From NCBI GenBank assembly GCA_964255285.1, contig CAXUUL010000101.1, forward strand, positions 1 to 32,610: 32,610 nucleotides of DNA. Direction: 5' to 3'. This DNA is from Ionaspis alba. Its lineage: Eukaryota. Each line of letters begins with the position of its first letter. The first letter of the stretch is position 1. A model generated the notes under the pieces. That model worked only from the letters and a program-made list of their open reading frames with translations. It did no database searches and was not told the origin of the DNA. Positions 13,945 through 21,382 of this stretch are shown here, one piece after another. The position numbers and the translations under genes are program-made.

Positions 13945-14229
13945 TGTTCTTTGACAGCCCTAAAAGTACGTATGATGTAACCATGGAGGACAGAAAGTTA
14001 TCAAGTGCCTTGCTGATAAACACTGATGATATGGCTCTATCGTCTGTCTCTACTCCTCTCTCTTCTCATGTCCCGGCACTAAACCTGAGCTGCTAGCAGT
14101 TTTTTTCTGTACTTCATTGGCCCGCTAGCAAGCATGGAGTGCTGGCAATCTCCTGGCACTGGATTAATAGGCCTAGCAGATTGATAGCTCAGCTTAGATT
14201 TGCTCAATCTGAATCTATCCATGACTGCT

Positions 14230-15134
14230 TTAGAAATATGTCAAGTCTTCAATCCCCTTCTCATTTGCCACATCCTTGGCAGTCTTGCCTTCCCAGTTCT
14301 TGATATTTCGGTCCGCTCCCTTCCTCGAAAGCCACTCCGCAAACGCATTCTGTCCCCTCTCCGCAGCAAAATGCAACGCTGTCCCCCACTCCACTTCCTT
14401 GACCGCACTTCCCTTGCCCTCCTTGAGCATGAACATCTCATTCACATCTGCACCCTTCTCCAACAGCGCCTCTGCAGCAGCCACGTTCCCCTTCTCCGCG
14501 GCCCTCCTTAAAGCATGCGACCCCTCGATCTTTGCTCCTCCATTCAGCAACAAGGTCACAATCCACGCACTCGGAAGCGCAGAGGCTCTCCCAAGCAACG
14601 ACTCGGACGCTGATCCAAATTTCGGGTTCGGATCGGCGCCTTGTGAAATCAAATACGCAGTCATAGCCTCCCACTGTCCAGCGACAGCCTCCACGAGCGG
14701 GCTAATGGCGTGCCCAAGGTCCTCGTTTACGCTCAGCCCAGCAGAGAGGTACAGAGACATGATGTCAGGGTTGTTGGTGGCTACAGCGGCGCAAGGGATG
14801 GAGGGGAAGAACACTTGCCATTCTGGAGGAATGGAGTGGTGGTCTGGGAGGCTGGGATTCCAGGGGCTGGGGCCCGGGACCCGGGAGAGGAGATGAGAGA
14901 TCAGAGGGCCGTGACAATGAGTAGTGGAGGTGTAAAGGAGGAAGGCGAGTGGTGGAGAGCTGGGGAAGGGCGGTGAGGGTCCTGGGTAGAGTTTTTGGAA
15001 GAGAGGGAGGTCGCCGGTTGAGCAGGCGCTGATGAGAGAGCAATTGAGGTCAGAATCTGTTTCAGAATATTAGGGAAGTGGGTACGGTTTCAGTGGGAGC
15101 GAGGACACCCACTTGGAGAAGGTTGAGGTGTCAT
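14230..15134 (-). CDS. Ankyrin-repeat protein with no signal peptide; exons 15134-15113, 15056-14230
   Basis: Repeats LISACSTGDL, SPLVEAV..YLISQGADPN, ALRRAAEKGN..ALLEKGADVN and TALHFAAERG..WLSRKGAD..NWEGKTA. Intron GTGGGT..CTAAT..CAG at 15112-15057 keeps the frame. Confidence 0.88.
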
Positions 15135-16096
15135 GTTTACTATCAAAGATAGCTGAAATTGAAATCCTAGGCGCTAACGTTGTTCTTTGTTCTGATCTAT
15201 AGTTTGAGTCTTTGGGTGTCGAAGGGAGATGGTCTTGCTTGTTATTATTACTCCTACTTCGGTTCTGCGCAGGATATGATTGCAGCGGCTATATGAATAC
15301 TTGAAGTTGTAGGATTACAACGCGGCCCTGGGGTAGATCCTCAGTAAGCTGCTTCCTACCGGCCCCAGACCAACAACAGTTGTCTCCGGCTTGCTCACAG
15401 GAAGGATAAAGTGAAGCATTGAACAAGTGAGCAGACCCCTGAGGCTGAATCGGCGCTGTGTCATGCATGTCATAACACTAGGGTTGGTGACCCGGCTCAG
15501 CCTTTCGCACTAAGACGCGCAGTTCTGCCTCGCTTAAATCAACCTCATGCTCCCACCTACAAGGAACACAATCCCACAAGTCGACCAAACCTCTTGGCAA
15601 CTATTTCATGTTTACGCTCGTCGATTCTCACGACATGTTGGACTTCCTCATTGCAGTCTGCGGGCAAAGGTTCGAAGCAATTGAAGAATTGTATTCAGCT
15701 CTGGCAATAACATTATGTTTCTCGTCAAGTTGGTTTCATCCTGTGCTTGCAACTCTCGAAGCCTCTATCCAGAGCTTGCTTTGGAAGAACCTGCTTCAAC
15801 AGAACTATCCTTGCATTATTCTCAACTGTTTCGAGGTTGACCGTACTGTCGATGCTATTGGACGGACATGCCATGTCTGACTTGCATTGAATATGGTCTG
15901 TTATACTCGGTATAACTATGACTTTGCTCTATAAGACTCCTTCTCTGTTGTTTTTCAGAAGATTGTTGTCCTTTATCTACTCTTCGAACGTATCGCCTGG
16001 TGCGATAGTTGTCTCATATTCATCATCTGGTTCCCTTTCACAGTACTCAATTCAGATTTCTGCATTATATAACTAGTGTCTAGACTGTTGCCCGGG

Positions 16097-17197
16097 ATGA
16101 AGTTTTCACTCTTTGCATCTCTGGCCACGATTCTGGCCGTTCCTGGAGCGCTCGCGATTCCAACCGAATATGGAGCCTATTTACAGCCCAGGGGTGCGTT
16201 TTCCTGATAATGACGATTTCCCGATCCATACCTCGCGCTGACTTGAAACGGATATTCCGTAGATTTGACTCTACGAGATACAGAAGATTTTCTGAACGTC
16301 CTACCGACTAGGACTATTGTATCTCGAGGCAACCCCGTGGGCTTTATACCCTCTTGTCCTACCATGCTTGGCCAGCCTCGACCGACTCCATGTCGACCAA
16401 ACAACCAAAGCGACCCATTGTCCCCTATCCATCCAAGACCAGCGAATCCCCCTCCAATTCCTTCAGTTGATGACATCGTCCGCGACTTCGAGCGCCGCTT
16501 TCCTGGTCGTCAAAGACAAAACCTTGTCTTTTGGACCGGTGTCGGCACTGATGGCGCACAGCAATTTGCGGATCGCCATGATCGCTACACGCTAAATGAA
16601 CTCATTCACGAGAATGGCAATATCAATGGGAGAGATGTGTACGCCGATATAACAGGTCGCCCGTGGGCACAAGGCGGCCAGCAGGTCTGGGAACAATTGA
16701 GCCTGGCGCTGGCGCAATTTGCAGAAGGGGTGGTTTATGTTGTGCAGACTGATGCGGGAAGACAGAATCCAAATAGTATTTGGGCGCGCATCGAAAGGCC
16801 ACGTTTGCAGGAAAGGCATATCACGATCAGATACTTCAACGAGCAAGGCAACGAAGTGGATGAGCATGGTAGAATCAAGCGTAAGCATGATCAGTTGAAA
16901 AAGCTAGCACTGAAAGGAAAAGCGAAGCCTAAGGATAAAGCGAAGGCAAAGGCGAGCGGAACCACGAGCACGTCAGACAAGAAGCCGCACAACAAAAGCA
17001 CAGCCAAAGAATCTTCAGGGGTTACTAAAGCTACGAGGCCTTCTGCTACAAGTAATCGGGTTCAGCTTCTGAGGGGACTGAAGAGGGGTTTAAGAGCACA
17101 ACATCTTGCTGTCAGAGAACTTGAGATGGAAACTCTTCGAGCGAGAGATGCTGTACGCAGTGGTGCTGGGAGCGAATGGCAAATTGCCTTTATGTAA
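16097..17197 (+). CDS. Secreted pre-pro-protein with a putative ADP-ribosyl cyclase/CD38-like (Tox-ARC) NAD+-processing domain and a Lys-rich tail; exons 16097-16193, 16263-17197
   Basis: Signal peptide MKFSLFASLATILAVPGALA; intron GTGCGT..GCTGAC..TAG. Motifs LVFWTG, YTLNE, VWEQLSLALAQFAEGVVYVV and NSIWARIE follow the order and spacing of CD38 LLWS, [25 protein letters not shown] and STFGSVE. The gene model is well supported; the function is inferred. Confidence 0.75.
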
Positions 17198-19264: not shown

Positions 19265-19605
19265 TCTTGGAGAAGGGTGTGAGCAGGGAGCGATGAAATC
19301 CTGGAATGCCTTGCATGATTCTTGTATACAACTTGCTCAGTCCGAATATATCGAGTTGTGTTGAATATGTGGGCAGTATCCCGATGTCTACCTCGATCAT
19401 GCGTGATAACAGATTGCGTAACATCAACTACCGCTGCAGAGATTGAGCCTGCTTCTTGACTACACTTTATAAGGCCGTCCAAAGATCCCTGTGCCCGCGG
19501 TAATGGCCGTAAGTTGCTGAAGATTCAGAAACTCCTGACCTTTGGCTTTCGAATATGAGTACGGGAATCACTTTTATCAACCTGTAGCCTATTCTCAGGC
19601 CGTAA

Positions 19606-20736
19606 GAGATGGCGTCACCTCCATGGTCAGGCTCATAGGCTCTGTTGCTAGTATAGCAGATGTTATTTCTAAAACCGTTCGAGCTCTATCGCAAATCCAA
19701 ATGAAATATAAGAACCCCAATTTGAGCGTCAGCGTTGTGATCGGCCTCCTTTCGATTCTCAATGCTGCTCTGAACCAGATATCAGAATGAATATCCACAA
19801 GCCTCGTAGGAGATTACCAGAATGAACAGTCGATTGAGGATCTTACTATTGCACTAGAAGGCTGTGAGACATTGATACTCATATTGGATGAACGATTTTG
19901 CAGCTCTGAAGGGACGATACAGGCGATCTCAGTATGACAGGGAAAATAGAACTTCTATGCGTAGCAGATGGTCTGAAAGAGTACCTCAGCCATCTGAGTA
20001 ACCAGATCGCTGCATTGAATCTGCTTTTGACAGCTCTGCAGTGGTAAGTGAATTGACAAATGCTCATATTGAGTGGCTGACAAGCCCTAGCCGATCACTA
20101 GCCGAGCAATCGATATTGCTGAGGAACAGTGAGAGCTGCAGGCTCTTCTCACGCATGAAAGACGATACATCTTCTTTACTGCTGATCAGGGACTCTTGGT
20201 CTTGTTATACTCGGGAAAGCGATGTTAGCAAGATTTCAATGCAGCTCGACCCAATATTCGACTTTGACCGTGAGATAATCAGTTCTAGGGCATACCAAAC
20301 AGCCATGCAATCACATATTCGCCGACTGATCACCTCCAGTAAGCGGCTTGAAACACAGTCCGCACAATTAAGAACACCAAATTCTGCGAGTGTCCTAAGC
20401 TATGAATCCGATATCATAGAGGGAAATGGCCAGACGGAAAAAGAAGGCCATCCAACCATCAGTGGACCAAAAGTCAATTCCATATCATCCCGTCCTGTAA
20501 TTCACGCTCACAACTTTACCCATCTAGGGCAGATACACCAAATATCGTGCCGGCAGCTTTTCGACTTCTTCCAGCATCAGACAATCCCAATGATGCTCTG
20601 TCCTCCCCGAATATTCAAGCAAAAGAAGCACGTATACGCACCACCGAGAAGCAGTTATACGCCGAAAAACAGTTGGCTGCAATCTTACAAGAAGCCCTCA
20701 TTCACTCGAAAAGCATGGCAACAAGGTCCGGTCTGA
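19606..20736 (+). pseudogene. Degenerate gene with a fungal HeLo-like/STAND N-terminal helical domain
   Basis: Reads DGVTSMVRLIGSVASIADVISK..LSILNAALNQISE*ISTSL..DLTIALEGCETLILILDER, then shifts frame near 19900-19912 to ..LKEYLSHLSNQIAALNLLLTALQC, then intron 20044-20090, then RSLAEQ..KDDTSSLL..FDFDREIISSRAYQ. The in-frame TGA at 19788-19790 sits where I recall Trp in this family. Confidence 0.72.
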
Positions 20737-21382
20737 AATAGAGACGTGGAAGGAGCAGGCGCGAAATCATAGGATGAGATCGAATCCCTGCGTTAGATGA
20801 GAGACGCCAGCCTTTTATCCATTGGAAGTGTAGCAGAAAAAGAAACTCCCAAACGAGAGGTAAAAAGAATGAAGTCGGAATTGGAGAGAAAGATAGTGAC
20901 ATTGATCAGTTTCCGGCGCCAGAGACGTATGGGATATCGAGTTCATTGATGCATTTGACTTTCGAATCTTTCGACGATAGCAGGAGGCATATAATAACCC
21001 TCTGCATTAGTACGCACATGCCGCGATTCCTGGAAATGGTCTTTAGGTCGTTCGACTTTCCCGTAAGAGATTTCATCGTGTAAAGGGGAAGGTCGTAATA
21101 TGAAAAGTGTTCGGGTGTGGATCGAGAATTGAGCTTTCAACAATCACAAGTGGCAGCTTTGTAACATGAGAAGGCTCAGCTTTGCGTTGTCAATGTCTAA
21201 CTGTTGGTAGATAGCAGGAAGACACATAAGGTACTCTCTAAGTCACTCGTCGATGGAAATGATTCGATAGCCAAGCAGTCCGACAGCACAGATGAGTTTG
21301 TAGAGTGCGTGGGATTTGATGCAATAACAATGGCTTACATTCAAATCCTTCAGCCCAGGTATCCATAATCCGTTGCCCATCC

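Follow-up and report, generated by a model that had tools for sequence, protein, structure and literature searches.

A secreted ADP-ribosyl cyclase-fold gene paired repeatedly with a stand-alone ankyrin gene in the genome of Ionaspis alba

The DNA analyzed here (the window) is a stretch of 32,610 nucleotides from Ionaspis alba that comprises the whole of contig CAXUUL010000101.1 (C101 below) in a genome assembly (GCA_964255285.1; G000 below) of 18.3 Mb in 1282 contigs. An original prediction, made from the letters of the window, placed four loci, which we call genes A to D, between a hypothetical gene with its stop at 13944 and a p24-family gene with its stop at 21383, and the gene models bear this out. 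That reading overlooked a unit that occurs at three places in the genome, namely a gene for a secreted protein of the ADP-ribosyl cyclase (ARC) fold adjoining a stand-alone ankyrin gene, which in the window are genes B and A, respectively. The interval as a whole is ordinary accessory DNA. The features of the window, followed by the two further pairs, are:

12035..13944, plus strand: conserved hypothetical gene, the left flank (33-43% identity, syntenic in 9 loci)
13945..21382, no strand: accessory interval, flanked by conserved genes that lie tail to tail; exceeds the empty site by ~6.8 kb
14230..15134, minus strand: gene A, stand-alone ankyrin-repeat protein of 282 amino acids (aa) with one intron, 15057-15112 (gene model; Pfam Ank/Ank_2)
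15135..16096, no strand: 962 bp upstream region common to the head-to-head genes A and B (gene models)
16097..17197, plus strand: gene B, secreted ARC-fold protein of 343 aa with one intron, 16194-16262 (gene model, homologs)
16457..16870, plus strand: ARC domain of gene B (alignment A1, profile matches, structure comparison)
18112..19264, plus strand: gene C, secreted protein of 353 aa with one intron, 18983-19073 (gene model, homologs, model of a homolog)
~19605..20739, plus strand: gene D, pseudogene from a family with a PigL_N-type N-terminal helical domain (tblastn with the paralog G000:C1169)
21383..22214, minus strand: p24-family gene, the right flank, head to head with SWC4 (gene model)
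G000:C1196:742-3512 (L060): second pair, ARC and ankyrin genes head to head, 1.2 kb apart (Pfam ARC search)
G000:C254:3042-4877 (L082:2543-4378), minus strand: third pair, ankyrin upstream of ARC on the same strand, ~0.7 kb (ARC profile)

The second ARC gene, on C1196, was the single match of a Pfam ARC search of the genome that was blind to neighbors. It codes for a secreted protein and is broken by a frameshift and a stop; the adjoining ankyrin gene contains a stop and runs off the contig end, and its best non-self match is gene A (E 2.5e-6). The window and C1196 pairs display no DNA similarity, and a single clade uniting gene B with the C1196 ARC gene was rejected (approximately unbiased [AU] p 0.03, with a long-branch caveat), so that the two pairs do not stem from a recent duplication. 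We then have a prospective scan with the ARC profile of 20 more of the 37 ankyrin-bearing contigs, in which short frames were favored, and which returned one match, on C254 (E 6e-7; HHalign probability 87%). Here the stand-alone ankyrin gene is truncated and frameshifted, and the ARC gene, again coding for a secreted protein, has an in-frame stop. Together with six earlier contigs, 26 of the 37 ankyrin contigs have been scanned, with ARC matches at C1196 and C254 only. A stand-alone ankyrin gene adjoins every ARC gene found in the genome (three of three), and the state of the two genes agrees within each pair, both being intact in the window and both broken at C1196 and at C254. Furthermore, an LGH..P/A-L motif is common to four ankyrins, those of C101, C1196, C254 and, in a looser form, C497, the first three of which have an ARC neighbor. 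Insensitive single-protein searches for further ARC or ankyrin paralogs yielded none beyond those named.

Gene B combines a signal-like N-terminus, an LxxR pro-region, a Pro-rich linker, a 138-aa ARC domain and a basic tail with 28 Lys plus Arg against 9 Asp plus Glu in 108 aa. The Pfam ARC match is weak (E 0.008); a 19-row profile matches the Pantoea ARC toxin 9ro8 (E 1.5e-12), the toxin Tac1 (9ouf; E 6e-12) and the Aplysia cyclase (9e-8), and the ESM Atlas assigns the protein to an ADP-ribosyl cyclase cluster at 0.92, the family label resting on 45% of the members. The structural model (predicted local distance difference test, pLDDT, 93) has 9ro8, 9ouf, CD38 and the Aplysia cyclase as its top Foldseek and VIA matches, with a Z of 12.8 and a root-mean-square deviation (rmsd) of 2.6 over 118 aligned residues against 9ro8 in VIA. 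In alignment A1 the ARC domain keeps a Trp (codon 16532), a second Trp (16688), a Ser and the catalytic Glu (16793), that is W26, W78, S82 and E113 in domain numbering; W78 and E113 are invariant in all 19 rows, and E113 corresponds to CD38 E226. The second Glu of the TLE motif, equivalent to CD38 E146, Tac1 E516 and ARCtox E299 and present in nine of the 19 aligned homologs, is replaced by Asn (16595). This does not exclude membership of the ARC group, because the site tunes hydrolysis versus cyclization and is absent in Nac1. Based on the modeled fold, gene B codes for an ARC-fold protein with catalytic residues, and the fold and residues together suggest that it probably cleaves nicotinamide adenine dinucleotide or its phosphate, NAD(P)+.

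A full HMMER search with gene B recovered 24 proteins, three of them long and probably spurious; the named relatives come from Gomphillus, Lambiella, Metarhizium, Purpureocillium and Diplodia, two of these being Lecanoromycetes. A word-index protein search found the window's own proteins only. In a 25-row tree the sister group of gene B consists of two unnamed proteins that have its tail layout (99/97), and the four bacterial rows fall on their own side (91/98). Being unrooted, with 25 rows and long branches, the tree gives no date for the origin of the gene. The original prediction had offered an ARC-domain phylogeny as a check on bacterial origin; a recent bacterial origin is unsupported, and we rejected recent bacterial transfer based on the intron and on the sister grouping apart from the bacterial rows. 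Around the bacterial ARC protein P0019 a neighborhood search found no locus; P0035 gave 34 loci, only one of them matched over the ARC domain, and there a 104-aa downstream gene displays no ankyrin pattern by eye, no profile scan having been made. Among the homologs, the unnamed 823-aa protein P0022 carries three tandem degenerate ARC-like domains. Two Metarhizium homologs that consist of the ARC domain, P0017 and P0043, bear the NCBI name “ankyrin repeat protein”, yet neither has an ankyrin repeat; as a lead only, the name may derive from a gene model elsewhere in which ARC and ankyrin are fused or merged.

Gene A matches Pfam Ank at E 1e-14 and has no hydrophobic N-terminus, its hydropathy being 1.1 versus 2.4 for genes B and C. 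The 962 bp that it shares with gene B gave no noteworthy Pfam match in six frames, and the head-to-head arrangement suggests co-regulation of the two genes from this region. We consider gene A a candidate inhibitor, i.e. immunity protein, of gene B. A complex prediction for the ARC domain with gene A, for which the binding guess had been drawn beforehand from the first two pairs (window and C1196), scored 0.60 (runs of 0.61, 0.60 and 0.53) against 0.00 for the best of three controls, with a contact agreement of at least 78% and a partner pLDDT of at least 81; it was rated weak and no interface is given. Of 78 solved complexes, 51 attain the mark that it passed, as do 2 of 108 mismatched pairs. 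Binding of gene A to the ARC domain of gene B is thus weakly predicted.

We also examined the interval in which the pair resides. A scan with p24 exon 2 returned 47 metagenome loci, nine of which also contain the hypothetical gene. In eight of these nine, the distance from the p24 stop to the hypothetical-gene stop is 664-672 bp versus 7438 bp in the window, and the gene order SWC4-p24-hypothetical-HEM2 is retained; these eight probably represent one species group, as three that were compared are ~97% identical. In the ninth, L015, the site is occupied by 4882 bp of unrelated sequence, and the other loci among the 47 are too short or rearranged for a comparison of the site. On a 23 kb contig of another fungus from run X3, HEM2 lies at most ~5.7 kb from p24 versus 10.7 kb in the window, which fits an empty site. 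The interval is accordingly an accessory insertion relative to related fungal loci, and the earlier claim of a lineage-specific insert within housekeeping synteny stands; genes A, B, C and D had no match in any of the 47 loci. Equally upheld is the claim that transposase and terminal repeats are lacking: no transposase or recombinase Pfam domain was found in the frames scanned across the interval, and neither terminal repeats nor a target-site duplication were found for it, the only repeats being short two-copy ones, none of them at the borders. The spacers gave no noteworthy Pfam match in six frames and no Rfam match, and a hidden fifth gene or G-alpha remnant was rejected for want of Pfam support. 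Nor was a signature of repeat-induced point mutation (RIP) or of composition found, the interval having a GC content of 0.44-0.53 and a TA/AT ratio of 0.6-0.8, like the flanks. The “wider spacers” of the original prediction did not hold up, as they span 0.3-1.0 kb versus a gap of ~1.2 kb between HEM2 and the hypothetical gene in the conserved flank, whose gene ends are approximate. Since the flanking genes are tail to tail, so that insertions spare both promoters, the site is better read as a tolerant slot than as a mobile element.

Several observations concern this site and the rest of the window. Behind p24, L015 has orphan frames as filler (L015:6981-11864), and L017 and L018 (10700-13800) have a NUDIX-like fragment, identified by eye, with a weak fungal-rhodopsin fragment. 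Run X2 contains near-identical pieces of the island and its flanks at a depth of 2-5 and, being from the same study, is not counted as independent. At 8045-8155 of the window, contigs of run X1 show six base differences and a single gap of 3 bases, and over 9607-26000 their match to it is exact. A second short-chain dehydrogenase gene (8192-9058), between the conserved gene of that type and HEM2, has no match in the syntenic loci and is another small accessory insertion. A zinc-cluster/acetyltransferase-like gene (by eye; 3850-6160) adjoins SWC4-p24 in L026, L032, L044 and L046-L048, so the linkage is kept in six other fungal loci with shuffled order.

Gene C begins similarly to gene B and continues with an LxxR pro-region, a low-complexity linker and a 131-aa mature domain. 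It had been described as Cys-rich; the mature domain has only four Cys, all conserved. Exon 2 matches nine fungal homologs (50-70% identity), two of which are fusions with a longer domain, and the named relatives belong to genera of Eurotiales, Xylariales and Pleosporales. The model of one homolog, P0029 (mean pLDDT 66), matches Y3 (5v6i) in VIA with a Z of 9.0 and an rmsd of 3.0 over 99 aligned residues, which stands above the rest; Zt-KP4, LDL, DUF26 and KP4 follow at a Z of 4-5. From this homolog's model, a Y3/KP4-like fold is predicted for gene C. Neither its exons nor P0029 match Pfam KP4/Hce2; some KP4 subclasses lack a Pfam pattern, and the fold group includes antifungal proteins (PMC12018790; here and below, papers are cited for the portions of them available to us). 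KP4-like proteins make up 8% of the secretome of a lichen fungus (bioRxiv 2024.08.16.608140). The fold by itself reveals no function. With exon 1, a word-index protein search found the window's own proteins only, and an ESM Atlas match to a ribonuclease was discarded for its score below 0.8. Exon 2 (19076-19261) shares 67-70% identity with proteins of Aspergillus and Penicillium, a level as great as that of the housekeeping p24 exon against its nearest syntenic relatives (65%); a patchy distribution or lateral transfer of gene C is possible on these identities. In the 450-aa proteins P0033 and P0034 (Paraphaeosphaeria, Aaosphaeria) the gene C domain is N-terminal and accompanied by a weak PI-PLC-like match, a fusion that would fit a lectin-like targeting role.

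Gene D has an in-frame stop at 19788-19790 and a frameshift near 19890-19935; its intron (20044-20090) has the same position as in the paralog on C1169, and to judge from these lesions it is decayed debris. The “HeLo-like” label given to it is not borne out for gene D itself, which has no HeLo/PigL_N (PF17111) profile match, PF17111 being a family once called HeLo-like. The only link runs through the paralog (L004:1486-3250), an open frame in which a PigL_N-like N-terminus (E 0.003; 17.3 bits, below the cut-off of 27.2) is fused to a divergent G-alpha-like domain (E 4e-7). The tail of gene D has no recognizable C-terminal domain, and no NACHT, NB-ARC or prion-forming remnant appeared in six frames over 20400-21380. 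Hence, of the assignment of all four genes to classes of antagonism or non-self recognition, the part concerning genes B and C stands, their predicted folds being tied to microbial antagonism, and nothing ties gene D to non-self recognition.

Based on these observations, we propose that gene B is a fungal ARC NAD(P)-cleaving enzyme and gene A its cytosolic ankyrin inhibitor, comparable to bacterial toxin-immunity pairs, a reading to which we give a probability of about 0.5. The slot between the tail-to-tail genes would have collected accessory genes of different origin, and the functional unit of the interval would be the A-B pair, with gene C a separate secreted Y3/KP4-fold protein and gene D debris. 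The product of gene B would be secreted, probably trimmed at its LxxR sites, and would cut NAD(P)+ with its ARC-fold active site, most likely acting against neighboring microbes. By analogy with Tac1 E516A and Nac1, the Asn at the second Glu site would make it a slower hydrolase, and it may release cyclic ADP-ribose. The product of gene A would stay cytosolic, bind the ARC domain and shield the producer or its kin from mis-sorted or taken-up enzyme. More tentatively, we posit a repeated two-gene module of filamentous fungi, in which a secreted ARC enzyme that cleaves NAD, and whose ancestry is ultimately bacterial, would diversify, move and die together with a cytosolic ankyrin inhibitor dedicated to it.

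A number of points weigh against this proposal. The predictions place the products of genes B and A in different compartments; in yeast killer systems, immunity to secreted toxins acts in the cytosol. The three pairs all stem from a single genome, the third ARC gene came to light in a search next to ankyrin genes, and the common ankyrin motif was defined after C254 had been seen. At C254 the two genes run in tandem instead of head to head, the ankyrin there shares only 29% identity with gene A over 34 aa, and the C497 ankyrin is of the same type without an ARC gene in the 9 kb scanned. Searches of the own genome give lower bounds, gene B having escaped the Pfam ARC search, and unpaired ARC genes may therefore exist. 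The complex prediction lends weak support, because its score falls in the range of all four false passes: at scores of 0.60 or below, the mark is reached by 5 of the 78 solved complexes and by all four passing mismatches (0.34-0.59), and the controls included no non-cognate ankyrin. The literature adds that fungal TNT NADases are secreted without an immunity protein in the available text of PMC11187862, that the Pantoea toxin needs the second Glu for its toxicity (PMC12605009), and that the signal-bearing Nac1, naturally without this Glu, is non-toxic (PMC12356396).

Accessory genes cluster in fungi, and this makes adjacency by chance more likely; in such a case the slot would gather unrelated accessory genes, and the ARC and ankyrin genes would adjoin as mobile accessories or as relics of an old block, with no functional tie. 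Ankyrin matches, spread over 37 contigs of the genome, and its 16 places with a PigL_N match are in keeping with this, as are the other filler in L015, the other gene fragments in L017 and L018 and the weak pass of the A-B complex. We nevertheless regard it as unlikely, as all three ARC genes have a stand-alone ankyrin neighbor and 24 of the 26 scanned ankyrin contigs have no ARC match, the two with a match (C1196 and C254) carry this very type of ankyrin, and the intact or broken state agrees in all three pairs. On a rough estimate that assumes ~7000 genes in random order, the C1196 pair has a chance of ~1% for any ankyrin neighbor. Improbable, too, is a linkage of another kind, in which gene B would signal via cyclic ADP-ribose or remove extracellular NAD, e.g. 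towards a photobiont or host, with gene A as a co-regulated sensor, adaptor or folding helper. The Asn at the second Glu site, the presence of this Glu in only nine of the 19 aligned homologs and the different predicted compartments of A and B would suit such a role, and Tac1 E516A and Nac1 release cyclic ADP-ribose, Nac1 being secreted and non-toxic; against it, most Tac1 active-site variants of much lower activity are still toxic (PMC12356396), and of the solved structures the two closest belong to antimicrobial toxins whose immunity comes from a bound partner.

The original prediction of a single co-acquired and co-expressed conflict island of four genes appears to us quite improbable. It could call upon the joint absence of genes A to D from the empty site and upon genes B and C both being secreted, with LxxR pro-regions and antagonism-linked folds. 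However, there is no sign of joint arrival; marks of a mobile element are lacking, gene D is dead, with a G-alpha-like fusion as its closest paralog, and genes A to C are intact, no match to the gene C family lies beside the other two ARC-ankyrin pairs, the filler of L015 is unrelated, and the named relatives of gene C are from Eurotiales, Xylariales and Pleosporales, those of gene B including Lecanoromycetes.

If the toxin-immunity reading of genes B and A is true, it would alter the view of secreted fungal NADases, which are thought to need no antidote in what is available of PMC11187862: an ankyrin inhibitor cognate to such an enzyme would imply entry of the enzyme into the cytoplasm of fungal cells, and fungus-fungus antagonism would become testable with a simple two-gene experiment. 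It also provides a rule for finding fungal toxins, namely to look beside stand-alone ankyrin genes, which here found the third ARC gene. The module, if true, would be a eukaryotic counterpart of the bacterial polymorphic toxins, for kin discrimination or warfare in a shared habitat, and would explain what one class of stand-alone fungal ankyrin genes, so far uncharacterized, is for. We found no paper on a fungal ARC-ankyrin pair in a search that left most subscription papers and supplements outside, and the gene-neighborhood tables of PMC3482391 could bear on novelty; likewise, the literature search found no functional study or partner gene for fungal ARC-domain proteins since their notice in 2012.

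The elements of the proposal are each already known: fungi have ARC domains, bacteria have ankyrin immunity proteins, and accessory inserts occur within fungal synteny. Zhang et al. 2012 (PMC3482391) noted Tox-ARC domains in asco- and basidiomycetes, and gene B is a member of this group by profile and fold; unlike the window pair, the fungal versions are named there without a partner gene, as far as the available text goes. Among secreted NAD-cleaving enzymes, the fungal TNT-domain surface NADases such as AfNADase are proposed to serve in microbial warfare; their fold is unrelated to that of gene B, and no immunity protein is reported for AfNADase in the accessible part of the source (PMC11187862). 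Nac1 of Actinophytocola oryzae, a non-toxic secreted producer of cyclic ADP-ribose, shares with gene B the signal peptide, the ARC fold and the lack of the second Glu, but has Ala at that site and no neighboring immunity gene. Gene C, for its part, resembles Y3 (5v6i), Zt-KP4 (8acx), LDL lectin (4nds), KP4 (1kpt) and DUF26/Gnk2 in its predicted small alpha/beta secreted fold, the P0029 model reaching Z values of 9.0, 5.3, 5.2 and 4.2 against this group; it differs in having no Pfam KP4/Hce2 match and ~15% identity, and the model is that of a homolog and not of gene C. In bacteria, ankyrin proteins are known to confer immunity (PMC3482391, PMC8285248), and like the Imm-Ank genes of polymorphic toxin systems, neighbors of Tox-AHH, deaminases and Tox-REase-7, gene A is a stand-alone ankyrin gene beside a toxin-domain gene, although the portions of these sources at hand list Imm-Ank neither for Tox-ARC nor for fungi. 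The closest parallels are ARCtox/ARCimm of Pantoea ananatis (9ro8) and Tac1/Tci1 of Streptococcus parasanguinis (9ouf). Gene B departs from such bacterial Tox-ARC pairs in being eukaryotic with introns and in having a signal-like N-terminus in place of PAAR, LXG or WXG carriers (a Pfam scan of its main exon found no PAAR, RHS, LXG or WXG domain), in its putative activity and in the Asn at the second Glu, the loss of which in Tac1 releases cyclic ADP-ribose (PMC12356396); its partner is an ankyrin and not Imm74, Imm63 or ARCimm. With these pairs it shares the ARC fold, the two Trp and the catalytic Glu, and, like them, it is adjoined by the gene of a candidate binding partner.

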